DNA from: a virus
Reading direction: 5' to 3' (one strand)
Length of the DNA stretch: 64,000 nt
IMG/VR virus record: IMGVR_UViG_3300027749_000062
Location: 40,242-104,241 of that record
In this document: positions 2,926 through 40,804 of the stretch, piece after piece
Position numbering within the stretch: the first letter of the stretch is position 1
Layout of the letters: each line of letters opens with the position of its first letter
Made by a program: the position numbers and the translations under genes
The notes under the pieces: generated by a model
What the model was told of the DNA's origin: nothing
Seen by the model: only the letters and a program-made list of their open reading frames with translations
The model's database searches: none

Positions 2926-5900
2926 AGTATGTTATTTATTCTAGGTTAAAAAGGTGTGATAGTGTAAGTGTATTCATCAAAGTAACCACTGACCATATAC
3001 GTTCCAGTGTTGGTTCTGCGTTCGGCAAAATCTGGAGTCACTATCACTCCAGTAGCACCTATTCCCTGATAAGGAGTTAAATATCCTGCTTCAAATTGAG
3101 CACCCCAACCATAAAATCCTGTTGCACCGTCACCTACATAAGTAGGGTTTACAAGGCTGGCATTAGTGGTACTTTTTGTTATACCAATACTACCTGTTAA
3201 TGTTCCGGCTCCTGCTAATGCGGTATTGGTGATATTACCAGTTACACTTACTCTATACCATCCATTTCCTTTTGGTTCGGAAGTTGAAGTAATATATGTT
3301 CCGCTACCGGATGTTGCTATATTATTAATAACTCCGGTAGATGGATTTACATTTATGCCGATTCTATCAGGTTGTTGATATCCTGTTGCAAAATATAAAG
3401 TTAAGTAGGTCGATGCAGAATATGATTTTACATGTACCGACCATGTATAAGTAGCAACTCTTTCTAATACAGTCATTGGATCTGTGAGTATTGTATGTCT
3501 ACCTAACGGTGCTGAGTTCAATAGTAAATCTGCGGTTAGCGTACTATTAGGTGCTGCTATTGCATTTCCGGTTACTACTACTTGACCCGAGGCAGTGTTC
3601 CACCCGGTTGCGTTATCAAATTCTTGAGAAGAAATGGCTAAATTCTTAATAGGTGATTGTGTAACTTCATCAAATAGTGCCGCATATACTCCTGCGGGTC
3701 CTACTTTAACAGAACTATAGGCTACTTCATCAAATGCCACACTTGATTGAAGTATTCCAGTGGGAAACAGTTTAGTTATAGTTGTTGCCATTATCCAAAT
3801 ACCGTGTCTAAACTACCTGTAGCTGAGTTATAATATTGATAGACTACACTTACATTGCTATTGACAAATCCAACTCTATTACCAACATAAATACTGTCTG
3901 CAACGCCGACACCACCAAACACTTGTAATGCACCTGTAGTATTTGATATAGATGTGGTTGTATTTGTTATTATTAAATTACCAGTAATTGTTACATTACC
4001 GGTAATTGTACCACCAGTATTTGCATTGACTGTATTGTTTGCTCTTGTATAAGCCGCATTAGCTTGTACAAAAGCACCATTGGCATATAATGATGACGAG
4101 TTTGCAACATTAAATCCGGCGTTTGATTGTACAAAAGCACCGTTAGCATATAGTTGTGCTGAGTTTGCAGTAAAGTAAGCAGAATTGGCATATGTGCCGG
4201 TTACATTCTGACTACCGTAAGCAGCATTCGCCTGAACAAATCCACCGTTAGCATAAAGTTGTGCCGAGTTAGCCGTATAGTAAGCTGAGTTGGCATATGA
4301 ACCAGTCGTGTTCTGACTTATGTAAGCTGCATTTGCCTGTGTATATGCATTTGTGATATAAGTGAATACATTATATCCACTAACATATATTGTGTTGGCT
4401 ATGACATTTGCTTTTACAGTATTAGCTATTAGATTTGCACGTTGATAAGAAGGATCTGTAATTATAATATTGTTATTGGGTGATACTTCTGGTGTATAAC
4501 CTTCAAATATATTCCATTCTTTTGTATCCGAATCTCGGAAAAAACCTGTGTGTGCGTTTGTTCCATTATTATAATGTGCAGCAAAACCAATATCTAATGC
4601 ATCTGAGTAATAATTTCCTAAACCCAATAATATCAAAGTATCTTTTACAGTAAAAGATTCAGTATTGGTTGTTATAGTAGTACCTAATACAGTCAAGTTA
4701 CCTTGAATTGTTGCATCTTGGACAATGGTTAAATTGCCTGTAATTGTTCCGCCTGCCAAAGGTAAAGCATTATTAGCTTTCAAGAATGCAGAGTTTGCAT
4801 ATGACCCAGCTGAATTAGCAAAACTAAGTGCAGTATTGGCATATGTACCTGTCACATTCTGGCTACTATAAGAAGCATTGGCTTGTACAAAAGCACCATT
4901 TGCATATAACTGTGCTGAATTGGCCGTATAATATGCCGAGTTAGCATATGTGCCTGTAGTTATTGCATTTGCATTGGCGCCGTTAGCTGCTAGATAAGCC
5001 GAGTTTGCATAAGAACCAGATGTTATGGCATTCGCATTTGCATTATTAGCCGCCAGATAAGCTGAGTTAGCATAAGTTCCTGTTACATTTTGACTAGTGT
5101 ATGATGCATTTGCCTGTACGAATGCACCATTAGCATATAACTGTGCTGAATTGGCGGTGTAATATGCTGAGTTTGCATAAGAACCAGATGTTATTGCATT
5201 CGCATTTGCGTTATTAGCCGCTAAGTAAGCTGAATTAGCATAAGTTCCTGTTACATTTTGACTAGTGTATGATGCGTTAGCTTGAGTAAATGCACCATTC
5301 GCATATACACCAGCAGAATTTGCAGAAAGAAATGCTGAGTTAGCATATGCACCTGAGGTTATTGCATTTGCATTAGAATTGTTTGATGATAAAAATGCAG
5401 AATTGGCATATGAACCGAATGTTATTGCATTAGCATTCGCACCATTGGCCGCCAAATAAGCTGAGTTAGCATAGGTACCAGTTACGTTTTGGGAAGCATA
5501 AGCTGAATTTGCCTGTACAAAAGCACCATTGGCATATAACTGAGATGAATTGGCTGTATAATATGCTGCATTAGCATATGTACCTGTTACGTTTTGTGAA
5601 CTATAGGCCGCATTGGCTTGTACGAGAGCACCATTCGCATATACGCCAGCAGAATTTGCTGTTGTAAAAGATGCATTAGAATATGCATAAGGTGCAGCCG
5701 CAGTAACTTGATATGTTGTATCGGGAAATATTACACTAACTGAAGTATTAACAGAATTTGCATATATGATATTAACACCACCAATATTTCCACTCGAACC
5801 GGTTGTGGTAAAATAAGCAGCTGTTACATTATTTGCAACTGTTAAATTATTGGATACAGTTAAGTTGCCTGCTGTAATTATTGTGCTTGTATTTTGTAAT

Positions 5901-8440: not shown

Positions 8441-11095
8441 TTACGGTAGTTTTGCCTTCAGTTCCTCTACTTGGTCACTCAGTTCTTTGATGGCCTCAAT
8501 CAATAATGGCACCAGACGTTCATAATTAATTGTCAAATATTGACTATCTATAGGTGCAGGATGAACAATTTCAGGTAAAACTGATTGTACTTGTTGTGCA
8601 GATACACCAACTTCGCGCCTTACTTTATAACCCAAATCTTGTGCCGTTTGATTAGCTTCATAATAGAAACCATTGAGTGACTTAACTTTATCTAAAGCAC
8701 CTATGATGTTTCCTAAATTCGTTTTTAGTTTATCATCAGAATAATATGCAGTAATAGTTCCAATTGCACGAATTTCACCAGCCGTTGTTGAAGCAGCCGT
8801 ACCAATACCAATTGAATTAAATTGAGAATTCTGTGTTGTGCTAGTAAATGTTGCAGCAGAACCTGTGGTATTTTGATTCAATGTTGGGAATGTACAATTG
8901 CTCAAATTACCTGATGATGGAGTACCAAGTATTGGAGTTACTAAAGTGGGACTTGTTGCAAAAACTAATGCACCAGAACCAGTTTCATCAGTAACAGCTG
9001 CCAGTAAATTGGCAGAATTGGAAGTTGCTAAGAAATTAGCAACATTTGTGGCAAGACCTGAAATACCAGTAGAAACTGGCAAACCAGTACAGTTTGTCAA
9101 TGTACCTGAATTTGGTGTGCCAAGTACAGGTGTTACTAAAGTTGGAGTATTTGAAAGTACAACTGAACCTGTTCCGGTAGAAGATGCAACTCCTGTACCA
9201 CCAGATGAAACTGGAACAGGTTGTGAAGAAGTTATTTGTCCTGCAGCAATATTTGCATTTAGTGTTCCATAATTTGCATACACTATAGCACCAACTGAGT
9301 TACTTGTTGGATTTGTTGCTAGACCTTGGAATAGATAATAATTACTTCCTGCAACTCTTACTAAACCTGCATATTTTGTACCTGCACTTACATATTGGCC
9401 ATAAAAACCAATGTCAACTGTATCCGATAAATTGTTCGCAGCTAATTCAATCAATGAATCAACTGTTTGGAAGGTTGAAACATTAATATATGAAGAAGTT
9501 CCATTGACAAATAAATTACCTGTGACACCTAAATCACCAGACAATGTACCACCAGTTCTTGGTAATGCATTATTTGCCGTTGTGAAAGCTGAATTTGCAT
9601 AAGAACCTGATGTTACTGCTTTAGTGTCTGCTGTAGCTGCATTTGTTGTTGCTGTATTTGCTTGTGTATACGCAGCGTTTGCCTGAATAAATGCAGGTTG
9701 TGCAGATAAAGCCGCCGTATTAGCAGCACTAAATGCTGAGTTAGCATAAGCACCAGATGTTATTGCATTAGCGTTGGCATTATTTGCCGCCAAATATGCA
9801 GAGTTAGCATAAGTGCCTGTCGTATTTTGAGATTGATATGCTGAATTTGCTTGTGTAAACGCAGGTTGTGCAGATAAAGCCGCCGTATTAGCAGCACTAA
9901 AAGCGGCATTTGCTTGGATAAAAGCACCAGTTAAAACTTTATTTGTTGGTACTGTTGTTGTGCTTGTTGATGTTGTACTATCAGAAATCATATTTGCAGT
10001 CATGATTTGTGAGTACTGTGTACCATTGTTTACATCTAAAATATCAAAATATTTACCTGTTTCATACCAACGTATAGTCGCATTGGCATTTGGAATACCA
10101 GTTGGTTGATTATTTGCAGTACCTCTATTAACACTAAAATAACTTATAACAGGTGTATTTGTGTTTGCATTTATTACAAAATTATTTGTTGTATAAACAA
10201 CTGTTCCATTAAGTACAAAAGAACCGCCAACAGTTACTGAACCTGATGTTGTCAATGATTGAAAAGCACCAACAGCATTTGTTGCTGAAAGTGATGATCC
10301 AGTCAATGTCATATTATTGATTGTTTGAGCACCAGACTGTAGATTATTAGCAAACAAATACGAAGAATTGGCAAAACTAAATGCCGAATTGGAATATATT
10401 CCGGTAGTATTTTGGGAACCATAAGCTGAATTAGCTTGTGTAAATGCTCCTAAGATGTATGCAATAATATCATAACCATTAACAACTGCGCTTGTTGCTG
10501 CAATAATGGAACCTCCAAAATTACCATTTGAAGTTACTGTTAATTGGCCAGCATTAATTCTATTATTTGAAGTTAAAAATGATGTATAAGTGTTTCCTGT
10601 TATACTTACGTTTCCTGTAATTCCTGCACCTGCACCTACAGTCAATGAATTTTGTAATGTTGCTGCACCTAATACATTGATTGTGTTAGAAATGGTTGTT
10701 GTACCAGAAACACTTAATGTTCCACCTAAGGTTGAATTATTTGATACTGATAAACTAGTACCTGTATTTGTGGCGTAGATAGTTCCATTAGAAGTAATCG
10801 AACCACTTGCAACTAAACTCTGTGATGTATTTGTGAAATATACTTGTTTACCTACAGTTAAGTTGTTGTCGATGGTTGCAGAAGAAGATGTACCTGTAAC
10901 TTGTAATAATCCGGAAATTGTAGCATTATTTCCAACAGATAGAGATGTGCCTGTTCCATTTAAAATCAAAGAACCAGAATCTTTTGTCCAATCATACTTA
11001 CCGATTGAATTGATTTCATTTGAATCGGCGTTTGTTGCAACAATCCAATCACCAAATGTGTTGGCGAAACCTAAAATATTGACTGTATTTGCCAT
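8441..11095 (-). CDS. Tail fibre with C-terminal intramolecular chaperone (peptidase S74)
   Basis: YYSDDKLKTN...GVSAQQVQSVLPE...YERLVPLLIEAIKEL at C-terminus. Confidence 0.88.
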   Translation of the reverse strand: MANTVNILGFANTFGDWIVATNADSNEINSIGKYDWTKDSGSLILNGTGTSLSVGNNATISGLLQVTGTSSSATIDNNLTVGKQVYFTNTSQSLVASGSITSNGTIYATNTGTSLSVSNNSTLGGTLSVSGTTTISNTINVLGAATLQNSLTVGAGAGITGNVSITGNTYTSFLTSNNRINAGQLTVTSNGNFGGSIIAATSAVVNGYDIIAYILGAFTQANSAYGSQNTTGIYSNSAFSFANSSYLFANNLQSGAQTINNMTLTGSSLSATNAVGAFQSLTTSGSVTVGGSFVLNGTVVYTTNNFVINANTNTPVISYFSVNRGTANNQPTGIPNANATIRWYETGKYFDILDVNNGTQYSQIMTANMISDSTTSTSTTTVPTNKVLTGAFIQANAAFSAANTAALSAQPAFTQANSAYQSQNTTGTYANSAYLAANNANANAITSGAYANSAFSAANTAALSAQPAFIQANAAYTQANTATTNAATADTKAVTSGSYANSAFTTANNALPRTGGTLSGDLGVTGNLFVNGTSSYINVSTFQTVDSLIELAANNLSDTVDIGFYGQYVSAGTKYAGLVRVAGSNYYLFQGLATNPTSNSVGAIVYANYGTLNANIAAGQITSSQPVPVSSGGTGVASSTGTGSVVLSNTPTLVTPVLGTPNSGTLTNCTGLPVSTGISGLATNVANFLATSNSANLLAAVTDETGSGALVFATSPTLVTPILGTPSSGNLSNCTFPTLNQNTTGSAATFTSTTQNSQFNSIGIGTAASTTAGEIRAIGTITAYYSDDKLKTNLGNIIGALDKVKSLNGFYYEANQTAQDLGYKVRREVGVSAQQVQSVLPEIVHPAPIDSQYLTINYERLVPLLIEAIKELSDQVEELKAKLP

Positions 11096-11096
11096 C

Positions 11097-11318
11097 TTAA
11101 CCTTTTATTAGTAATTGTTGCAACAACGATTTAATCTCGGACATGTCCGATTTGATGCAATCTATTTCTGATTTTACTTTATTTATTTCTTCTTTTTGAA
11201 TCTTTACCAACCTAAGTTTATTATAATACTCATTTTTTTCTGTACTATCTGTAGGCAAAAGAGCTCTACTGTTTATATCACGAACAAAATTTGTTCCAGT
11301 AACTCTTACTAGTTCCAT
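11097..11318 (-). CDS. Small coiled-coil protein conserved in T4-like phages
   Basis: 73 aa, VRD..S.A motif and C-terminal EIKSLLQQLL; follows DUF4815 gene. Confidence 0.55.
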   Translation of the reverse strand: MELVRVTGTNFVRDINSRALLPTDSTEKNEYYNKLRLVKIQKEEINKVKSEIDCIKSDMSEIKSLLQQLLIKG

Positions 11319-11319
11319 T

Positions 11320-13512
11320 TTAGATTCCTGTTCCTGCTGGCAATGCTAATGCACGAATATCAGTTAAGAAAGGAACATTTGTATTATCACTTGTCGCTAA
11401 AACAATTTTGATTGCAAATTGAATAAATGATGTATACTTTTGACCTGTTGTTGCACTTACATAACTGATGCTGTTGTTTGCTTGGTTACTTGCATAAATG
11501 CCAGGCGCAGCTTCATATTCATACAAATCGGTTCTAGATGTGGAAAATGTATTTGGATTCTGCATAGTTGTCATCAACTGCCAGTTACCTGATTCAAACG
11601 GAGCTGTATCTAATGAATTCAAAATTTTGTAATAAACATAGATAGCTGTACCTAATGGTTTATATGCAGTATAAAATACTCTTAAATCACCTGAATCATT
11701 TCCTGGTGCAAGTACAACTTTCTTAGTGAAATATTTTGCATATGAATTACCACCTTTTGATGATGTTTCACCTGTTACTGTAACAACAGCATTTGCATTT
11801 CCTCCGCGAGTAGCTGGATTGGAAATTGTAATTGTTGGTGATGTTAGATAACCAGAACCTGGTGTAATTGCATATACAGAAGTAATTGCACCGTTGGCAT
11901 TTGCAGTAAATCCTAATGTTGCAACATTTGAACCAACATCTGGACTTGAAATTGATATTGTTGTTGCATTGACGTTATAACCATAACCTGGATTGGTAAT
12001 AGATATAACATTATTACCAATTCCCATGTTATTGATGAGATAAGAAATCGCATACATCGTAACACCATCGTCCGAAATGATTGGGGTCACGTTAGGATCA
12101 CTTGTGGCCATTGTTGCATACAATGAGAAGGAATTATTTGAATACTTTAATAGGGTTCTTTCTCCATTTCCATCATTTAAGTAAATGTCATCAGGTAAAG
12201 GACTTCCTAATCTTCCAGGAGTAATTGAATTTGTACCTGTTGGTACATTTCCAGTCTTTAATGTTGCTGTATATGAATAATTGATACTTGTTCCTGTTGG
12301 TGCAAGGTCAGTTGTGGTGATATTCATTGCATCATAAACTCTACTTGGAGAATAATTACCAAATATCTGTGAGGCACTATTCGCATCTATCTTATTCAAA
12401 ATATCTTGGTTGCCCATTTTTCTAAATGGCAAACCTTTGGGTACAGTAAACTGAACCGAAGCTGTGGTTGTAGAGAACACACATTTATCAATAACAAACA
12501 TCAAATCTTTTGTTTGGTCTGCTGACCATGTTATACCATTTTGAGATTCAAACAAAGCACCAACATAAGGAGCTGCACCAATTTTTGTTGGATTACTTGG
12601 ATTTGCATCTGATACATTAGCTTTTGCAGTAGAGGGTACAGCTATTTGATTTTGTTGACCATAATAAAGTACATAATCTTTAGAAGCTGAATTAACAATA
12701 AAAGCGTACAATACACCAGATTGAATATAAACCGGTGCATCAAAAACAAATTCTGTATAAGCACTTGGATCCAAATAATGTGGTGTGCTGGATGTGTTTA
12801 CTTGGTTTGGAAGTAACATAACCGTAGAGTAATCTAATGTAGAACCATCAGGATAACCATTAATTGTAGGTACAACACTAATTTTTACTGGAATATTTGT
12901 TGAAGGTTTTGAATAGAAAAATAATTTGATTGAGTATAAGAAAATGCCATTGGGGTAATTATCTTTTGAAACAATAAATGTTTGTGCAACCGGATCACTA
13001 TTACCTGTTTGTACGGTAGTAGAACGAGTCGTTGTAACTGAACTAATTAATTGATTGGCTCTTTGATTTACTTGAGTAAATACAGATTTAGAAGAATCTA
13101 TTGAAGGTGCAAAATCTAATTTTTGTGAGGATGTTGAAAGACCTGAGGCGACAAATGTTCCTTCGGCAAATGTTGTTGCGGTTGTTAAATCTGTGGCCAC
13201 AGTTCTATTATCTACGCGAAATACTCTACTTCCGGTTTGAAATGTAGTGGAAGGAACATTGAAAATACCAACAAAATTACCAGCTTCATCTGTCGAAGGT
13301 TTAGCTAATGAGTTTCCAGTTTGCACCGCCGAGCTAATTTTAGTTAAATTGCCTGAAATGGAATAACGAGAACTAATATCTCCACCCATTTCTGTATTTG
13401 TACCCAACGATAAATTTACAGGAGTACTAAGTGTAACAAGTTTTGTTACCGGATCATATGCTGTAATGGTTGCAGAATAAGTGTAAAGACTTGAGCGATA
13501 AAGTGTTGTCAT
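11320..13512 (-). CDS. DUF4815/VrlC-like baseplate-associated protein, C-terminal part
   Basis: G.F.VP...F.TG.R.FR, DPVAQTF, LFESQNG.TW...Q..DL.F, ends D.RALAL; own RBS (GGAAAAA). Confidence 0.8.
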   Translation of the reverse strand: MTTLYRSSLYTYSATITAYDPVTKLVTLSTPVNLSLGTNTEMGGDISSRYSISGNLTKISSAVQTGNSLAKPSTDEAGNFVGIFNVPSTTFQTGSRVFRVDNRTVATDLTTATTFAEGTFVASGLSTSSQKLDFAPSIDSSKSVFTQVNQRANQLISSVTTTRSTTVQTGNSDPVAQTFIVSKDNYPNGIFLYSIKLFFYSKPSTNIPVKISVVPTINGYPDGSTLDYSTVMLLPNQVNTSSTPHYLDPSAYTEFVFDAPVYIQSGVLYAFIVNSASKDYVLYYGQQNQIAVPSTAKANVSDANPSNPTKIGAAPYVGALFESQNGITWSADQTKDLMFVIDKCVFSTTTASVQFTVPKGLPFRKMGNQDILNKIDANSASQIFGNYSPSRVYDAMNITTTDLAPTGTSINYSYTATLKTGNVPTGTNSITPGRLGSPLPDDIYLNDGNGERTLLKYSNNSFSLYATMATSDPNVTPIISDDGVTMYAISYLINNMGIGNNVISITNPGYGYNVNATTISISSPDVGSNVATLGFTANANGAITSVYAITPGSGYLTSPTITISNPATRGGNANAVVTVTGETSSKGGNSYAKYFTKKVVLAPGNDSGDLRVFYTAYKPLGTAIYVYYKILNSLDTAPFESGNWQLMTTMQNPNTFSTSRTDLYEYEAAPGIYASNQANNSISYVSATTGQKYTSFIQFAIKIVLATSDNTNVPFLTDIRALALPAGTGI

Positions 13513-13531
13513 TTATTTTTCCAAAATTTTA

Positions 13532-16500
13532 TTAATTATTTATTGTCTTGGGAAATGATTTATCACCAAAAACTCTACTAATTGTATATAAGAAAGCAAA
13601 TAGTGCCCACATTCCGTAACCTGTTACTATACCAGCTTGCTTGTCTTTTCTTGGTAATAAGTTGACTATTTTACTAATTGGTTTACCAATATTCATAATA
13701 ATTTTACCAGCGAGATTATCTTTATCTCTCTTACCCATTATATATGCCATATGTTCAGCCCAAGGTGTTGCAATTCTATGAGCCCATTTTGTTGCAAGTT
13801 TTGCTTGGACTTCAGAACGCTTCTTATCATCTTTAATCCAGAACATACATTGTGGACCTTCACCGGACATCCAATCAACAACAACTGTAGCCCAACGAAT
13901 ATAACCATGATAGGCCGCAGGGTCATTCAATTTTAACAATTCACCAAATTCTTGGTCCGCCTTGTAAATTGATTCATCCATTAGTCCCAATTGGTATAGT
14001 TTGGTACAGATAATTTTACCTCCACCACCGCCACCTCCAGAAGGTTTTGGTGGAGGTGGAACATATGTTGCAGATACATCGAGACTGTAAACATATTTTG
14101 ATGTAATGTTAATTGTTGAACCAACATAGTAACTAGAAGTATTTGAAGCAGTAGCTGGATCCAATCTTAATTGAGTTGCACCAACAAACCACTCTGCGCC
14201 AGCTGGCATTCTAACCGAAGTTCCTGCATTAGTATATGTAATCGGTGGATTAATTGTAGTATACACTATCGTGTTTGATGCATTCTTAATTGTTGCACCA
14301 AAAGCTGATGTTGTTGTACCTGAACTTGTTGCGGTCCATCCAAGTTTTACCGTTGTTGGTGCATTTGATACTGTATAAGTAAAAGTTGTTGTTGATGCTG
14401 GTGTGTTCGTTAAAGAAGTTCCAATGCTTGTACCATTCGCATAAACTGTTGCTGAACCTGATGCACCAACCTCTATCGTGTAAATTCCGTTAGCTGTGAG
14501 TGTGACGGGTGAGGTAAAATTGAAATTGGTACTATTAGTTCCATCACCCCAAACTCCATAGTTATTCAATAGTGATGAATAACCTTGTACTATTGGTGTT
14601 CCAAATATTTGTGTTGTTGTATTACCATTTAATGTATTTGACCAACCACCACCAACACCACTAATTGAACCACTTTGGCTTATGTTTATTACTGAATTAG
14701 AGGCTACTGTTCCTGATGCAGAAGAAGACAAGTAATTTCCACTAGAGTCAAATGTTGCATTCCTTAAAGTTGTAGATCCTAATAAATTAGGAACACCAAG
14801 AATATCTGAAACATATAAACGAACTTTTGTCGTATCTGTATAATAATAAACAGTTGTTACACGAGCAATTGGATAGAACACACTGGCAATATAAAAACCA
14901 ATAATATCATCATTATTAAATGTGCCAGAAACACCTGTCAATTCAATTGTATTTGGAGCAGTCATGTATCGTGATACATCTACACCATCAAAGAATGTCG
15001 ATACATTTGAATTGACCAACAAACCAGATGCACGAATAATAACTTGTTGCGGTCTAATGTAAGGCAATACTGTAATATTAGTCAAGTATCCATTATTAAT
15101 TCCAAATGTGGAAGAAGTAGGATTATATGCACCTGAAGTAACATTTTGAATTTGACTTGCATATGTTTGCGTTGTTGTGCTTACAGTAGTTGTCCTAGAT
15201 GTACTAGTAGTGGATACGCTTGAGCTAGAACTACTACTTGATGATAATGTTCCTGGAATAGTTTGATAATCACCTGAATTTAACAAGTTAACACCAGTTG
15301 TGGCTTGATATATTTGAAAATTAGGATTAGTAACTAAAATCGCTGGTGCTTGATTGTTATCTACCCAATTGTCCATTGGTGGGTTCATTTGTAATAACCC
15401 CTGTTGGACTGAAACATTGAATGGATTTACAGAAACTGTACTACTTGCAAGTGGTTGAACAGCAACATTTTCTGTTGTGTATGGTAAAGTAAACAGATTT
15501 GTTTGAGCACCATTGATGCTATTAATTCTATAACTATTTGTATTTGCTATCGTTCCTAAACTCGCAAGCACAACAGGATTTTGGAGTTGAAAATTATCAA
15601 CCAATTGCAATGCAGTTAGTTGATTTTTACGAACATTGATGTTTGCAGCATAGTCTGGATTTTGTGTGTCTGCTGTTCCAAATGATGAAAAATCATCAAC
15701 CAATATACCATTCTTAAAACGATTTAAACCATTAGCATCAGGAATTTGTAAAGAACTAGCTTTTTGTTCCAAAATACTTAATGATGTATAATATTCTAAA
15801 TTATTAACACGGGTTTCTAAATCTGTAATATCTTCTTTAGCCCAACGCTTGTGAATAATTTTATTGATAGACAAGTTTGATGGAACACCAGGTGTACCCT
15901 CACCAGGAACAAAAGCTGTATATGGGTCGTGAAATAAATTTGCAATTATCATAGAACCAGATGGTTCATTTGGCAATAATGGATTAACAGAAGGTGTACC
16001 TTGAATTATATTAAAACTCTTATCTTTTGTTAATACTAATTTGTCGTTTCTACCCAAATAGTATTGATAGAAACCTGTAAAGTTTGATAAATTATTGGGT
16101 ATCAACATACCAATATCATTCGTAGAAGTTTGTGTACCTGAATATTCCCAAACATATGCAGTCTGACCATTAACTCGGCAAGGCCTAAAATCAATACAAT
16201 CTCTTAATGCATATTGTACACCATCTTTAGCTGTGTATGAACCAATTTGTGCATAAGCTTCTGCTGAACTCGATACACCACCATAAGTTGAGCCTGATGT
16301 ATTATATGATTGGATACTGAAATAACCATCACCAGAAGATGCTTGTGTGTGAGAATAGTAATCTACAGCAACAAGAATATTTCCTGAAGGAATCGGCGCA
16401 CCTGGAATCAATGAAACCGATGCATGGTCATAGAAACTATCTCTTTGGCCATTGTCTAATGTGAAATAAGAAGTAATATCTGTATAATTTGACAATGAAC

Positions 16501-18844
16501 CTGATGGATTTGTACCAGCAACACCTGAATCAAATACACCTACAATTCTTTTAACATCATTTACATACAATGACATTTTTCCAGTTGCTGTAATGTCTGT
16601 TTTACTAATTGTAATTTGACCTTTTGTTAAATCCTGATAAGAATTTGTTCCAGAAACTGATGCAAGTGTACCAACAGTTACGGTGTTACCCGTAACTAAA
16701 GATTTTGATTTTAAAACATAACTTGAAGAATCACCACTGCTTGCTTGGACTTGTGCAATAATTGTAACATTTTTATTTGTACCAACACCAGAACCAACTG
16801 TAAATGTTGCTTGAGTTTTATCAGAAGAAATTGAAATTGTATTACCTGATGTAGTAAAATCTAAAACATTACCTGTTGAATTATCAACAACCATGAATAA
16901 TTGCGGCGCAGATGAACTATCTAAAGTACCTGTACCTTCAAATCTTAATGGATTACTTGCATTGCCTGATGTTGCTTGTAGTGTTAATGTATTACCAGTA
17001 AATGTTTTTGAACGATATACTCTTTGTGTAAAATAAGAAGTGGTGGTTAATTGTGCAACATATGGATAACCAATTTGAAATATTAATTCGGGTGAAACTT
17101 GTGAATATAATATTGTATCTGAATTTGCAAGACCATTAACTTTACCACTTGCTGCATTTATATTCACATTTGCGGTTAGCGCATAAGAACCAGAACCGGC
17201 AGTTTTAACAATAGATTCAACATCATAATTTTCATATATCAATGAGAAAGTTGATGTTGCTGTTGGTGTTACTGTGAATGGAGAATCCACATTTACTACT
17301 TTGGAAGCACCATTGTAACTTGTAATATTTCTCAAATCAATAATACCGCCAGTATTCATACTTACTGTTACATTGAAGTAAGAATTTGAAGTGGCTGAGA
17401 ATGAACCGTTTGTATCATTAATTGTGAAGGTTGTTGCAGTGCCTGATGTAACATTTCCGGATAATGTGTTTGCAGCAAAATCTGAAATATATGCATTGAA
17501 AATATATGTTTTAGTATTTGTTCCAGTACCTGAATTATATTTCAAGTTACGCATGAAAGCAGAACCAATCAATGTTGATGAATAAGTTGTAGTATTTGTT
17601 GAAACAATGTTAGCTGCAGGAACACAATGCAAATCAACTTGAGGCAATGTAGAAATATCAAATACACCATTAGAGGTGTCTACAACAAAATAATTTCCGT
17701 AATCCACATAAACTGGATTATTACTGATATTTGCAACAGACTGAGCTCTTGTGTTTGTTAATTTAATATCAGATTGGTTCTCTACTCGATAACCATGAAC
17801 ATATGCAACACCTTTACTAATACTTAAATCATAGGTTGTATTTGATGTAGAATTTGCAGATGGTGTTAGTTTGAAATCATTAACAATATAATCACCATTT
17901 GTTTCATAATCACGTTTTGCAAAGTAATCATCGATGGTTGAGTAAACAGTGCCATCAACTTGTTTTAAAATATTACCATTTTCAATCCGAACCAATTCAA
18001 TAAAATTATCATCATTACCTAAAGTCAAAGGCAACGTAATCAATGTTAGTGTGATAACATATCTGTCTGCACCCGGTGCTTGATAGTTGGATGCACCAAT
18101 AGCAGGATCCAACAAAGAAGAATCATTGATGTAATCGTAAATTGTTTCTGTAATTTGTAAACCAATGCGGTATGATGGTAAATTATCATACTTGTCTAAA
18201 ATGATTGTCTGTGGATTAACAGTAACAAAGTTACCTATTGAATATTGGATGCCAGTACTATTTGAAATGGAATATCCATTAACAACATAAAATACACCAT
18301 TCGCAATAGAAGCAACCGATGAAAGACCAGTTGAAGATATGGTTGTTGATACTGAATTAACTACTGTAGTGGTCGATGTAGCGACAGAAGCATAGTATGT
18401 TGAACCTGTGCTTGTTGAAATAACACTACCATCGGTAAATTGAGCACCTGAGAGATATGTTACAATCAATGTTGGTGGGTCACCAACGGTGGAACCACTA
18501 GTTGTAGTTTCAGCCGTAGCAATAACTCTAGCAAGAATTGTTCCTGTTGAATCTTGAATAATTTGGCCTGCGAAATTCCCAGCAGTTACTGTAATACCAT
18601 TGTAAGTATTGTTCAGTTTAATATAATAACATTGTTGATTAAGTGTGACTTGTCCACCCGAAACTGGTGTATTTGTAGAATATATCGCAGAAGCAAATTC
18701 AGAAATTTGATTCTGTAAAATTGTTTGAGACTGTGTTAATTCACGAGCTTGAACCGCAGAACCTGGCTTAAACAGTATGCGGTGAAAGTTTTTTGATGGG
18801 TCAAAATCGTCAAAATATGGACCAACATTGAAATTTAAAGACAT
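13532..18844 (-). CDS. DUF4815/VrlC-like baseplate-associated protein, N-terminal part, with extra C-terminal helical domain
   Basis: Starts FNVGPYFDDFD...ILFKPG.AVQARELTQ.Q; APGADR; LETRVNNLEYYTSLS; RFKNGILVDDF. Confidence 0.85.
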   Translation of the reverse strand: MSLNFNVGPYFDDFDPSKNFHRILFKPGSAVQARELTQSQTILQNQISEFASAIYSTNTPVSGGQVTLNQQCYYIKLNNTYNGITVTAGNFAGQIIQDSTGTILARVIATAETTTSGSTVGDPPTLIVTYLSGAQFTDGSVISTSTGSTYYASVATSTTTVVNSVSTTISSTGLSSVASIANGVFYVVNGYSISNSTGIQYSIGNFVTVNPQTIILDKYDNLPSYRIGLQITETIYDYINDSSLLDPAIGASNYQAPGADRYVITLTLITLPLTLGNDDNFIELVRIENGNILKQVDGTVYSTIDDYFAKRDYETNGDYIVNDFKLTPSANSTSNTTYDLSISKGVAYVHGYRVENQSDIKLTNTRAQSVANISNNPVYVDYGNYFVVDTSNGVFDISTLPQVDLHCVPAANIVSTNTTTYSSTLIGSAFMRNLKYNSGTGTNTKTYIFNAYISDFAANTLSGNVTSGTATTFTINDTNGSFSATSNSYFNVTVSMNTGGIIDLRNITSYNGASKVVNVDSPFTVTPTATSTFSLIYENYDVESIVKTAGSGSYALTANVNINAASGKVNGLANSDTILYSQVSPELIFQIGYPYVAQLTTTSYFTQRVYRSKTFTGNTLTLQATSGNASNPLRFEGTGTLDSSSAPQLFMVVDNSTGNVLDFTTSGNTISISSDKTQATFTVGSGVGTNKNVTIIAQVQASSGDSSSYVLKSKSLVTGNTVTVGTLASVSGTNSYQDLTKGQITISKTDITATGKMSLYVNDVKRIVGVFDSGVAGTNPSGSLSNYTDITSYFTLDNGQRDSFYDHASVSLIPGAPIPSGNILVAVDYYSHTQASSGDGYFSIQSYNTSGSTYGGVSSSAEAYAQIGSYTAKDGVQYALRDCIDFRPCRVNGQTAYVWEYSGTQTSTNDIGMLIPNNLSNFTGFYQYYLGRNDKLVLTKDKSFNIIQGTPSVNPLLPNEPSGSMIIANLFHDPYTAFVPGEGTPGVPSNLSINKIIHKRWAKEDITDLETRVNNLEYYTSLSILEQKASSLQIPDANGLNRFKNGILVDDFSSFGTADTQNPDYAANINVRKNQLTALQLVDNFQLQNPVVLASLGTIANTNSYRINSINGAQTNLFTLPYTTENVAVQPLASSTVSVNPFNVSVQQGLLQMNPPMDNWVDNNQAPAILVTNPNFQIYQATTGVNLLNSGDYQTIPGTLSSSSSSSSSVSTTSTSRTTTVSTTTQTYASQIQNVTSGAYNPTSSTFGINNGYLTNITVLPYIRPQQVIIRASGLLVNSNVSTFFDGVDVSRYMTAPNTIELTGVSGTFNNDDIIGFYIASVFYPIARVTTVYYYTDTTKVRLYVSDILGVPNLLGSTTLRNATFDSSGNYLSSSASGTVASNSVINISQSGSISGVGGGWSNTLNGNTTTQIFGTPIVQGYSSLLNNYGVWGDGTNSTNFNFTSPVTLTANGIYTIEVGASGSATVYANGTSIGTSLTNTPASTTTFTYTVSNAPTTVKLGWTATSSGTTTSAFGATIKNASNTIVYTTINPPITYTNAGTSVRMPAGAEWFVGATQLRLDPATASNTSSYYVGSTINITSKYVYSLDVSATYVPPPPKPSGGGGGGGKIICTKLYQLGLMDESIYKADQEFGELLKLNDPAAYHGYIRWATVVVDWMSGEGPQCMFWIKDDKKRSEVQAKLATKWAHRIATPWAEHMAYIMGKRDKDNLAGKIIMNIGKPISKIVNLLPRKDKQAGIVTGYGMWALFAFLYTISRVFGDKSFPKTINN

Positions 18845-18853
18845 TTTTTTCCT

Positions 18854-20278
18854 TTAGTATCCTAGTACAAATTTAAATTGCTCGATGCCATCAACGCTTC
18901 TTTGAACACCAACACGATTCTCAATATATGTTATATATCCTGAAAATGGAATGAGTGAAGGTGAAGTTACAGAGAAAACCACCCTCGATGCACCTGAAGA
19001 TAAACCAATAATTGATTGGCCAACTGTATATGTTCCATTTATATTTATCAACTGTAATATATTCGTTGATGTGTTGAAATTTAAGACTGTTCCGTAGTAA
19101 ATAACATTTCCATTATTATCGAATTGTTGTACAATTTCATCGGCCGTGTAGACATTTCCTGCACCAGCTGAAACTAGAAATTGGGTTGAAGTGTTATATA
19201 TTGCACCATTTGCGAGTGCTGGACCAGAGGAACCATATACTTGTGGATTAATAAGAAGTCCAACTTGGCGATAATTTACACCGGTTGTAGGCAAAACACC
19301 ATTTTCAGAACCATTGAATTCAACTGAATACATTACATGATTGCAACCCAACTCAGATATTGGATCGTATGCATGGCCGCCGACTGGTGAAATAGGAGCT
19401 ACGGCTGTTGCACCAGAACCTAATGAAGAAATATAACTTAGATTCGCTGAGGTGTATGCCTTGATTGATACATTTGCATATGTATAATTGTTTCCTGCAA
19501 AACCTGTTTTGACAACAATATCATTAATTACACCATTGGTTATCTGTGAACTTGTTATATTTGCAACGGTTCCTGTACCATCACCTGTTACGGTAACCAC
19601 AATATATGTGTTAACTGCATCATATCCTGATCCTCCGTTTGTTACATTTATTACCTCAATGTCTCCGCAACCTGCGTTAGTCAGATATGGTTGAGGTGTG
19701 TTTGCACCAACAGGGATAGGCATCCAATCAGTATCCAAGAAACTTTTCTTGAGACCTGCATCAATTGTATACATGTATTTCCATTTATACAGGTCATTAC
19801 CTTGATAGATATTATTTGTTCCGTATGAACCTGGTTGAAAATATGGCTCAGAAGTTGACAGTCCGCCATTATTATTCGCAAGACATTTGAAAACTTGGTC
19901 GTAACGGTTCTTTACATAAAAATTATAAAGTGGAAATCCATTGGCATCTTTTGCATTCATGTTTACTGAATCGGAATATGCAAAGAAATTGGTGTTATTT
20001 GCCCAATTAATCCTTTGAATAACAGGTGAAATGTTACTGGAGTTAATTAGTTTTGCTCCAAACATATTTTTAAACACTCTTTTCAGATATGTCTGGTCTT
20101 CTGTCGGTTGTGTTGGTGTTTCACTTGAATTCACTATTGGCCATGAATCCTCTTGGCCAATAAAAGCATATATGGAATTAATGGTAGCACCATTGAGTTT
20201 GACTGTCGGATTGTAATAATCCGTCTCAACTCTGATTACTTTTGCTTGATTTGTGAGTATGTTTAGATTTGATGCCAT
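18854..20278 (-). CDS. gp8: Baseplate wedge subunit gp8
   Basis: FYV....QVFKCL.N, WKYMYTI, ISP.GGH..D...ELG, YIENR..VQR...EQFK.VL. Confidence 0.9.
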   Translation of the reverse strand: MASNLNILTNQAKVIRVETDYYNPTVKLNGATINSIYAFIGQEDSWPIVNSSETPTQPTEDQTYLKRVFKNMFGAKLINSSNISPVIQRINWANNTNFFAYSDSVNMNAKDANGFPLYNFYVKNRYDQVFKCLANNNGGLSTSEPYFQPGSYGTNNIYQGNDLYKWKYMYTIDAGLKKSFLDTDWMPIPVGANTPQPYLTNAGCGDIEVINVTNGGSGYDAVNTYIVVTVTGDGTGTVANITSSQITNGVINDIVVKTGFAGNNYTYANVSIKAYTSANLSYISSLGSGATAVAPISPVGGHAYDPISELGCNHVMYSVEFNGSENGVLPTTGVNYRQVGLLINPQVYGSSGPALANGAIYNTSTQFLVSAGAGNVYTADEIVQQFDNNGNVIYYGTVLNFNTSTNILQLININGTYTVGQSIIGLSSGASRVVFSVTSPSLIPFSGYITYIENRVGVQRSVDGIEQFKFVLGY

Positions 20279-38800: not shown

Positions 38801-40804
38801 ATGGACTACAGTAAAGCAAAAAAAATAAGAAGCCAGAGCCTCAAAGATTTAATCATAGACAGAACCTTAAATGGGGAGGGCTTTGGTAAATCTATTTCCA
38901 GTTCCATAAAAGATAAAACTAAAGCTAAACTAACAGGCCTCAAAGAGAAATTTGATCCAATGAATATCTCCCGTGCAGTTGGAGGAAGATTAGGTGCATA
39001 TGCATATGGTAAACTTGCAGGTAGAAGTGATAAAGATATGGCTTACTTTGCAGGTGTAAAAAACAAAAAATCATCAGCTGACGCATCAGCTCTTACACCA
39101 GTTAAGAATGATCCTCTAGTTTCAAAAGTATCCGACGGTGAAAATAGACCAATCAGAAAAGGTGAAGGTCTTTCCACTATTATGGCTCGTATTTTCAATT
39201 TGTTAAAAAGACAAATTTTAGAAGAAAAGAAAGAGAGAGAAATTGCTGCGGATTTTGAAGAAGAACAGGAAGATGAGAGAGAATTAAGACATAAAGAATT
39301 ACTTGATGCTCTAAAAAATTTAGGTGGTGGAACTGCAACTGCTGAAAAAAAAGGTAAAGGTTTTCTTGAAAGGATGATTGAAATAGTCAAAAAAATATTG
39401 GCCGCAGTATTTTTAAAACTTAAACCATTACTGACTGTTTTGAAATCAATAATAAAAGCAATTGCTTTAAATAAAGATTTATCAACCTTACGAAGTATTG
39501 CATCATTAGCTATGGCGTTTCCGGGTGTTGCCTTGGTCGCAGGTGGGGCTGCTGCTGCAGTTGTAATATCCAGAGATGTTGAACAACGCCAAGAAGCTAT
39601 GAGAGCTGATCCTTATAATCCTAAATTTAAAGATGAACCTTATGCAATGATTCAAAGGGGTGAAGCTTCCAACAACAGTGAAGCTGGAGCATTAAACGCA
39701 CAAAAAATAGGAAAACAAAAACCTAGAGATATAGTCGAATCAATAATGACCAATCCTGATTTTACTGATGTGGTAAAAAAGCAAGAGTTATCTGTTCAAA
39801 ATTTACAACAAGTAACGGACTGGTTAGCAAAAACTCAAGGTAATCAGAGAGCTAAATTTCAAGGTGAAGTTACAAATAAAGCTGGAAAATTAGTTACTCT
39901 TTCAGGTGGTACAGATGAAAATTTAGTTGTTCCGGCCACTAATCCAAAAAGTGCAAAATATGTTGCTCCAGCGCAGGCGGCACCACAAGTTATTGATGTA
40001 AAAGGTGCTGGTGAAAATATTATACCTGCAGATAATGTTGGACTAGACGGCCGACCATTAACTCCAGCTCCAGCACCAGCAGCTGCTCCAGCACCAGCAG
40101 CTGCTCCAGCACCAGCAGCTGCTCCAGCGCCAGCAGTTGCTCCAGCGCCAGCAGTTGCTCCAGCGCCAGCAGTTGCTCCAGCGCCAGCAGCACCAGCAGT
40201 GCAAGCGGCCGATGTAAAATCAGCAGTAAAAGTAGAAGAATCAGCACCAAAACCGGAAGCTGCAACTGCTGTACCTGCTAGTAAACCTTACAGAGAAATT
40301 GCAAAAAATATAAGAGTAGATTCTACAATATCCGATGAAACAATTTCTAACATGAAAGAATCACCTGGAAATTTCAATTTTCTTGATTCGGATGAAATGT
40401 GGACAAGAAATAAAAACGGAAATCTCGGTATTATAAAAATTCCAAAACAAGATATAATAAAAAGTAGCAATTTTTCTAAAGAAGAAATGGAAAGGCAAAC
40501 AAAAGAAACAAAAGAAAGAATAATAGATGGTGCAAAAAATATGAAGTTGGATTCTGATAAAAAATCTTCACTAGAAACAAGTGACAACATGTTTGCTCAA
40601 ATGTTTCAAAGAGCTCAAAAAGTTTATGAAGATTTAATGTTAGCTAGTGATAGTACAAAATTTAAACCTACTATAATAGATGCAAGTAAGAGTGTTGCAA
40701 CTTCTGGTGGCGGTAATTCTGGCACCATTTTTTCAGCTCCTGTTCGTACAGATGATGATACTCTAAAACTTATACTGAAAAAAAATACTCACTCATTTGC
40801 ATAA
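38801..40804 (+). CDS. Second tape-measure-like virion protein
   Basis: KEKFDP.NI motif; shares RKG(D/E)G...RH.E...AL segment with the previous gene. Confidence 0.6.
   Translation: MDYSKAKKIRSQSLKDLIIDRTLNGEGFGKSISSSIKDKTKAKLTGLKEKFDPMNISRAVGGRLGAYAYGKLAGRSDKDMAYFAGVKNKKSSADASALTPVKNDPLVSKVSDGENRPIRKGEGLSTIMARIFNLLKRQILEEKKEREIAADFEEEQEDERELRHKELLDALKNLGGGTATAEKKGKGFLERMIEIVKKILAAVFLKLKPLLTVLKSIIKAIALNKDLSTLRSIASLAMAFPGVALVAGGAAAAVVISRDVEQRQEAMRADPYNPKFKDEPYAMIQRGEASNNSEAGALNAQKIGKQKPRDIVESIMTNPDFTDVVKKQELSVQNLQQVTDWLAKTQGNQRAKFQGEVTNKAGKLVTLSGGTDENLVVPATNPKSAKYVAPAQAAPQVIDVKGAGENIIPADNVGLDGRPLTPAPAPAAAPAPAAAPAPAAAPAPAVAPAPAVAPAPAVAPAPAAPAVQAADVKSAVKVEESAPKPEAATAVPASKPYREIAKNIRVDSTISDETISNMKESPGNFNFLDSDEMWTRNKNGNLGIIKIPKQDIIKSSNFSKEEMERQTKETKERIIDGAKNMKLDSDKKSSLETSDNMFAQMFQRAQKVYEDLMLASDSTKFKPTIIDASKSVATSGGGNSGTIFSAPVRTDDDTLKLILKKNTHSFA
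40064..40199 (+). repeat. 18-bp tandem repeat, about 6 units (PA(A/V)APA)
   Basis: CCAGCAG(C/T)TGCTCCAGC(A/G) units. Confidence 0.92.

Follow-up and report, generated by a model that had tools for sequence, protein, structure and literature searches.

The hinge of a split vrlC baseplate gene in freshwater T4-like phages as a slot for interchangeable end-modules

Phage tail spikes and fibres, such as endosialidase and proteins of the T5 pb1 type, carry the Peptidase_S74 intramolecular chaperone. In Hedgehog proteins, the Hog part is composed of a Hint domain and a sterol-recognition tail. Tail-anchored membrane proteins possess a single hydrophobic helix at their extreme C-terminus, which is inserted after translation. 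Finally, genes in pieces occur in T4-like phages, for example in Aeromonas phage Aeh1, where nrdA is split by the homing-endonuclease gene mobE. Here we describe a locus that shares features with all four of these systems and differs from them in others. It lies in a stretch of 64,000 nucleotides (hereafter the window), positions 40,242 to 104,241 of the IMG/VR virus record IMGVR_UViG_3300027749_000062. The record is a 104-kb contig of a T4-like phage, and the metagenome runs containing the window sequence are of freshwater and lake origin, with no RNA run listed among them. In the window, the baseplate gene vrlC is interrupted by a cassette that encodes a helical C-terminal domain, here called module A, followed by a stop and a restart of translation. 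Comparison of related loci shows that freshwater T4-like phages of one clade use the vrlC hinge as a slot for end-cassettes that can replace one another.

The first open reading frame (ORF1; 13532-18844, on the minus strand like all window features below) encodes 1770 amino acids and corresponds to the N-terminal two thirds of VrlC/DUF4815. Its body (14066-18844), matched by DUF4815 and phrog_358, comprises the first approximately 1590 residues, is beta-rich and ends in ...ITSKYVYSLDVSAT. The tail of ORF1 continues in the order SAT, linker PPPPKPSGGGGGGG, K-IICTKLY..., helical module of about 160 residues and TAA TAA. The hinge linker YVPPPPKPSGGGGGGG (14018-14065), read directly from the sequence, forms the left edge of the cassette and is kept in split as well as in basal unsplit relatives. 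Module A itself (13535-14017) consists of a lysine and 160 residues starting from IICTKLY; the codon of its cysteine is at 14006-14008. The stop and the 19-nt spacer ahead of the second open reading frame (ORF2) occupy 13513-13534, including the tandem TAA TAA at 13529-13534. ORF2 (VrlC-C; 11320-13512, 730 amino acids) starts in another frame with ATG at 13512-13510, 19 nt past the stop of ORF1. It begins with MTTLYRSSLYTYSATITAYD and contains both SATITAYDP and DPVAQTF. All sequence statements of the original prediction, made from the letters alone, were verified: the abrupt switch at SAT-linker-KIICT to about 160 residues of Trp/Met/Lys-rich helix, its hydrophobic end, the stop and the restart 19 nt further on.

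The same prediction regarded the gene as a split DUF4815 baseplate gene, which is supported by the profile searches. Pfam DUF4815 matches ORF1 at 1.8e-57. The profile phrog_358 (length 2056) matches ORF1 at 2.1e-228, with residues 3-1334 aligned to profile positions 5-1273, and ORF2 at 1.2e-85, with residues 59-388 aligned to positions 1308-1612; the two matches are colinear. In BLASTP against VrlC of cyanophage P-RSM4, the match of ORF1 runs to residue 1529, and ORF2 matches residues 1654-1884 and 2370-2486. The synteny gp8 - VrlC - small virion protein (phrog_473) is the same in cyanophages P-RSM4 and S-T4, where vrlC is unbroken (2488 and 2459 codons, respectively). By these models and synteny, ORF1 and ORF2 together are the VrlC/DUF4815/phrog_358 baseplate protein. 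The literature found on VrlC describes it only as a baseplate protein, which takes the place of T4 gp7 in phages whose baseplates are double-layered (PMC7029224, PMC4621102), and no paper on module A was found.

One explanation would be that the stop and restart are an error of sequencing or assembly, or that the gene is a pseudogene in a dead phage. Nothing was found in its favour; it is refuted by reads and we assign it a negligible probability. Contigs from four other freshwater runs span 13506-13661 or 13300-13956 and show substitutions only, with zero indels, and three other IMG/VR contigs, whose modules are 96-99% identical, contain the identical stop and restart. Because independent metagenome contigs show the same stop, the stop and restart are genuine and the assembly error named as a refutation by the original prediction is excluded. 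Further, about 45 split relatives keep intact long open reading frames on either side of the interruption, and the ratio of nonsynonymous to synonymous substitution rates (dN/dS) of module A against close relatives is 0.02-0.07, that is, the module is under purifying selection. Joining of ORF1 to ORF2 by readthrough or frameshifting was considered as well and ruled out: the stops are in tandem, and the spacer length and frame relation differ among relatives.

Evidence for the slot comes from the loci encoding homologues of ORF2. Eighty of them were retrieved and the 78 informative ones were classified according to what occupies the hinge. The hinge motif Y-x-PPPP-x-S-G(n) is common to nearly all of the classified loci and is present in relatives of every state. 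Module A resides there in eight loci, in addition to the window, and a short A-like form without the last helix in three. A different module of about 120 residues (module B), which always starts with CC-V-[IV]-A-T-A-L after a Gly run, is found in twelve. Ten loci have a Hint domain followed by a helical tail of about 90 residues, three (L057, L058 and L070) have the Peptidase_S74 chaperone, and nine end in short Trp/Asp-rich or other tails. In the remaining 33 the gene is unbroken and the ORF2 stretch is continuous with the upstream part. The cataloguing of site occupants, which the original prediction had recommended, thus places both Hint and the self-cleaving S74 at exactly the site of module A in relatives.

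The S74 loci are informative about where the first half of VrlC ends. The tail of L057 scores 26.1 bits against a Pfam gathering score of 22, and in all three loci the chaperone follows ...SSWF|SDRRLK. A homologous stalk is present in their sister, L060, which stops at ...NSIHF, where S74 would cut, and represents a natural "pre-cleaved" allele (the reading frames of the S74 loci and of L060 end near locus positions 3946 and 3908, respectively). Among the short tails, those of L025, L043, L045, L046 and L049 have a common Trp/Asp-rich motif (for example GGWWSWSDWF, DVDWWQPW or YPWDDFNSW), which is perhaps a remnant, perhaps a tail of minimal size that still functions. Because L060 ends at the S74 cut point, the mature first half would end just past the hinge in three states (S74, Hint and short tail). 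The S74 domain resembles module A in being a C-terminal, exchangeable unit of fibre and baseplate proteins that sits at the identical hinge site, and it is not part of the mature protein. In contrast to S74, module A has neither a match to the S74 hidden Markov model nor the Ser-Asp-x-Arg-x-Lys cleavage motif, and it is all-helical with a hydrophobic end. As a separate observation, a tail-fibre gene at 8441-11095, two genes downstream of vrlC, ends in an S74-type intramolecular chaperone tail of its own; on another of its structural proteins, this phage therefore uses an end-module of a type known to cleave itself.

The Hint domains at the hinge start with G(n)|CFT (GGGG|CFT) and contain the C1 motif and the TxxH block, without a terminal HN. 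Of their 13 profile matches in PDB, 12 are inteins or bacterial intein-like (BIL) domains, the best at E 0.004. Like module A, Hint begins with a cysteine after a Gly run; in the 10 relatives it occupies the same hinge site and its helical tail is hydrophobic. In other proteins a Hint domain ending in VHN stands directly before module A, which there takes the place of the Hedgehog adduct-recognition tail. Module A differs from Hint in that it has no Hint-type Pfam match (E<=0.1), no TxxH and no terminal HN, and it is helical, not beta-rich. The inserted domain was predicted to be an autonomous module other than Hint, and this is borne out by the absence of a Hint profile match and by the all-helical model. 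The proposed link to CFI-box-CTERM domains did not hold: modules A and B and the small downstream genes have no such NCBIfam match at E<=1, and the term was not found in the literature.

An exhaustive phmmer search retrieved 712 clusters (at 50% identity) with E<=1e-3, 248 of them with E<=1e-10. Module A is always C-terminal, in proteins of about 150 to 1860 residues. The element before it usually consists of Gly runs, often as G(n)-C-K-IICT, and otherwise of Pro runs, C-N repeats or a Hint domain ending in VHN. Among the 88 full-length representatives, Gly_rich_2 is the most common partner domain (21/88), followed by Hint types (about 6) and DUF4815 (3); Flg_new, PA14, CHB_HEX_C_1 and Ig-like domains occur as well. 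The identity of module A across these unrelated host proteins is 50-60%. No Pfam, NCBIfam or PHROGs model matches it and no source names it. Judging by this distribution together with its substitution pattern, module A represents a new family of helical domains and is autonomous, under selection and strongly conserved.

Two cultured phages carry the module. In Synechococcus phage SynMITS9220M01, gp028 (L001:6669-8519) has module A on a glycine-rich protein, after about 35 prolines and 8 arginines. This linker is an extreme case of a rigid, charged one, and a still longer Pro run exists in the Acidimicrobiales metagenome-assembled genome L104. In the podovirus Puniceispirillum phage HMO-2011, the short form ends the 762-residue Gln/Pro-rich protein gp49 (L115:4063-6351), where the linker before the module is non-Gly. 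The gene is located between portal-like and coat genes, and the family is therefore not confined to fibre or baseplate proteins. Short forms are also present in Sneathiella isolates, where the context gives weak phage-like matches only, and in Saccharibacteria, Acidimicrobiales and other metagenome-assembled genomes. In a subgroup from Bacteroidota metagenome-assembled genomes (L095, L096, P0006, P0025, P0028, P0031, P0053 and others), the module follows Cys-Asn repeats (CNCNCNC, CACDCDC) and not polyGly; such stretches could be metal-binding or otherwise unusual linkers.

Some copies of the module are followed by a small gene. In L008 (6456-7298) and L011 (6458-7279), a gene overlapping the module A stop encodes 273-280 residues with a Cys-containing helical N-terminal part (...C-L-I-Y-N...VVEYY...) and a second, short A-like module (RVICTWL...). 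Only the N-terminal part of this product exists in L012, L013 and SynMITS9220M01 gp029. The product of the L008/L011 gene has no Pfam or NCBIfam match. We also considered a polymorphic toxin cassette and rejected it: the module is conserved and not hypervariable, the next gene in the window is VrlC-C, and only some copies are followed by the small gene.

Module B (CC-VVATAL...) likewise stands at the end of Gly_rich_2 and other non-VrlC proteins (P0213, P0215). It shares the range of partner proteins with module A, though the two are not demonstrably homologous: in hhalign the motifs come in the same order, and the similarity falls short of significance (E 0.1 and 0.03, probability below 2%). 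Comparison of the Hint tail with A and B revealed no relation, and short stand-alone relatives of module B were looked for and none was found. The AlphaFold2 model of module B is too poor to use, with a predicted local distance difference test score (pLDDT) of 44.5.

The original prediction proposed a non-Hint self-processing or membrane-anchoring module that releases or conjugates a polyGly C-terminus on the baseplate. In a self-processing module of this kind, the cysteine would attack the upstream backbone, and the polyGly end of the baseplate protein would be released or transferred, in analogy to Hint and Hedgehog. The conservation of this residue was checked and it proved invariant in all 88 representatives, together with D20, G37, Y38, W41, G103 and G110. 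The model places it at the N-terminus of helix 1, where activated thiols are typically located. Further support comes from the occurrence of Hint (GGGG|CFT...) and of self-cleaving S74 at the exact position of module A, from the flexible Gly, Pro or Cys-rich linkers that nearly always precede the module, and from L060 and the short-tail relatives, which demonstrate that the first half can function when it ends at the hinge. There are, however, several arguments against such catalysis. Firstly, the invariant residues include no His, Thr or Asn as a partner for the cysteine; no conserved His exists among the 88 representatives, and H88 is E in many of them. Secondly, the conserved K-I-I precedes the cysteine, which is thus three residues inside the module and off the linker junction. 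Thirdly, the all-helical fold is not similar to known autoproteolytic domains, and features of Hint or S74 are missing from it. In several proteins a complete Hint (...VHN) immediately precedes module A, and it would be redundant if A cut itself, and in HMO-2011 gp49 the module follows a linker that is not composed of glycines. On balance we consider self-processing unlikely. The broader proposal, that A (perhaps also B) would be a new class of Cys-dependent non-Hint processing domain that cuts or transfers the polyGly C-terminus of baseplate and fibre proteins, possibly at the membrane, is in our opinion distinctly improbable.

Structure prediction, as recommended from the outset, was run with AlphaFold2 on 46 sequences and resulted in an all-helical model of six helices (pLDDT 92.6, predicted template modelling score (pTM) 0.85). 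Foldseek against PDB produced no match (best E 1.6). The best rows of VIA-align were NEL (IpaH/SspH) E3-ligase domains (SspH1 with Z 5.6, SlrP 5.2, IpaH 4.3 and IpaH1880 4.1), all far below what is meaningful for helical bundles. With module A as a query, BFVD returned uncharacterised family members only and ESM Atlas viral hypothetical clusters only. A homotrimer prediction with three copies of the module scored 0.01, which carries no weight either way.

The last helix of module A (AGIVTGYGMWALFAFLYTI, 13580-13636) is hydrophobic according to the Kyte-Doolittle scale, coincides with the model helix at module residues 129-149 and is a candidate tail anchor. The maximum over 19 residues reaches at least 1.6, the usual threshold, in 93 of 150 family representatives, and most of these end 1-4 residues past the helix. 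Most module A proteins resemble tail-anchored proteins in that they end within this distance of a hydrophobic helix of about 19 residues that is preceded by basic residues. In the window the helix is borderline (1.45, below the threshold), and it is missing in short forms.

Such an architecture can also be imagined to act in the mature virion. In that case, a hydrophobic helix hidden in the compact bundle would enter the host membrane at infection, and the module would serve as an anchor, channel helper or exclusion factor. The combination of a conserved helical bundle and a terminal hydrophobic helix on baseplate, fibre and portal-adjacent (HMO-2011) proteins agrees with this idea, and the long flexible linker would allow the module to reach a membrane. 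On the other hand, close relatives replace the module with self-removing domains, short tails or nothing, and members of the short form do without the hydrophobic helix altogether. Nor does it resemble pore-forming domains or fusion domains that are known; in Foldseek, rows of Bcl-2 have E>1 and a TM-score <0.2. A role retained in the virion appears doubtful to us, to about the same degree as the broader processing proposal.

The history of the cassette was followed on a tree of ORF2 homologues. The tree comes from a quick LG+G4 search with some long-branched rows, and exact numbers of changes are therefore rough. Its basal lineages are unbroken and all split forms fall into one clade, with a value of 96 in the Shimodaira-Hasegawa-like approximate likelihood ratio test (SH-aLRT). 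At least 16 changes of state are needed; by label, gains or losses on well-supported branches number at least three for A, at least four for B and at least two for Hint. In blastn against a B-type relative (L018), homology stops at 14018 and restarts at 13522, and against a Hint-type relative the corresponding positions are 14022 and 13494. Identity of modules does not follow that of their surroundings: L059 has 42% identity in the module and 71% in ORF2, and L016 and L017 have 96% in the module and 81-87% in the flanks. According to these comparisons, the swapped segment reaches from the polyGly codons to a position some 10 nt ahead of the start of ORF2, so that in the window the exchangeable unit comprises the module, the stops and about 10 nt of the spacer (13523-14017). 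All split forms have the same ORF2 start (MTT...), and the split therefore looks older than the module swaps.

L020, an unbroken gene nested in the A clade of the window, lacks the part corresponding to about 13502-14010. Its junction retains both "SAT" segments (...SATYVPPPQLPSGGAGG-LTLSNG-YRASLYTYSAT...). From its position in the clade, we conclude that L020 has lost the cassette secondarily and in frame, by a junction other than SAT..SAT. The tree and the fused locus together indicate that the cassette is dispensable, being repeatedly exchanged and lost, with halves that are able to fuse again. The original prediction had drawn attention to an 8-bp repeat encoding SAT at 13469-13476 and 14067-14074. 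Its presence, its spacing of 598 nt and its being in frame in each of the two reading frames were confirmed, as was the suspicion that it may be due to chance; the "clean fusion" expected upon removal of the sequence between the copies was not, since L020 keeps both segments. As this kilobase contains 15 direct repeats of at least 8 nt, the 8-mer being one of them, and the window has 7 copies against 2.4 expected, the repeat is at chance level. Excision of 598 nt between the SAT copies was thus ruled out; natural fusions and swaps use other boundaries.

The frequent gains and losses at this hot spot and the discordance between modules and flanks raise the question of whether the cassette is a mere passenger, a selfish or neutral element that recombines at the repeated polyGly codons and at the conserved start of ORF2, spreads in this way and splits genes able to tolerate it, with no benefit to the phage. 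Contigs of other organisms from the same lakes match only the polyGly/K-IIC junction (window 14001-14042) and diverge on both sides, with loose ends at 14001 and 14035; these matches are consistent with a junction common to different genes and count in favour of a passenger. The locus can also be compared with genes in pieces. In both cases an essential phage gene that is intact in close relatives is interrupted by inserted DNA, and two polypeptides reassemble, here presumably, into one functional protein. The insert of the window, in contrast, encodes only module A, with no nuclease family (Pfam, PHROGs, NCBIfam) and no other notable reading frame; it is translationally fused to the upstream half, and at least five alternative modules are found in the same slot. 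A passenger would further have to do without a nuclease, recombinase or other mobility function in or beside the cassette. The low dN/dS and the 712 clusters point to a selected protein function, and the apparent precedence of the split over the swaps also speaks against a passenger. We regard this explanation as very improbable.

The comparisons show that vrlC has a flexible Pro/Gly hinge about two thirds along and that, in the clade of split forms, it was divided there into two genes, each translated on its own. At the 3' end of the first of these, a slot arose for A, short A, the unrelated-looking, Cys-first B, Hint with its tail, S74 or a short Trp/Asp tail. From homology and from natural re-fusion, the two VrlC halves may be expected to reassemble non-covalently into one baseplate protein with their ends adjacent. 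Module A would hold or organise a protein of the fibre or baseplate type just after its synthesis, probably tethered by the terminal hydrophobic helix and probably at the inner membrane, and the flexible linker would make the module removable or dispensable; its actual removal is possible. As the mature first half would end just past the hinge in the S74, Hint and short-tail states, A and B would, on the simplest reading, also be accessory end-domains outside the core. Module A would then be an accessory pro-domain with a role in the assembly phase in the infected cell, and not part of the core of the mature baseplate. This is the reading we favour, and we hold it tentatively, its chance of being correct falling somewhat short of even.

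Several observations weigh against this pro-domain model. The hydrophobic helix, on which the tethering relies, stays at a Kyte-Doolittle value of 1.45 in the window and is absent from short-form relatives. The compact and confident model (pTM 0.85) suggests that the helix may belong to the packed bundle and not cross a membrane. The identity of 50-60% between host proteins that are unrelated is just as compatible with a function in the virion at infection. Finally, a relation of A to B or to the Hint tail could not be demonstrated with hhalign (E 0.03-0.06); modules that are "interchangeable" may therefore differ in function.

As for the surroundings of vrlC in the window, its upstream neighbour is a gp8-like baseplate wedge gene (18854-20278; phrog_438, 8.8e-70), and its downstream neighbour encodes a small virion structural protein of 73 residues (11097-11318; phrog_473, 2.5e-15).

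Taken together, module A represents a large phage domain family without a Pfam or NCBIfam model, with a confidently predicted fold that has no solved relative and with an invariant cysteine. The vrlC hinge can be viewed as a natural experiment, which offers matched controls for the role of C-terminal end-modules in virion assembly. If the cassette is only a passenger, it would be a new kind of gene-splitting element that works without a nuclease. If Cys-dependent processing is true, a previously unknown chemistry of virion maturation would operate in hundreds of phage lineages. And if the module self-processes or tethers baseplate assembly to the membrane, it would represent a new step in the morphogenesis of tailed phages and possibly a tool for protein engineering.

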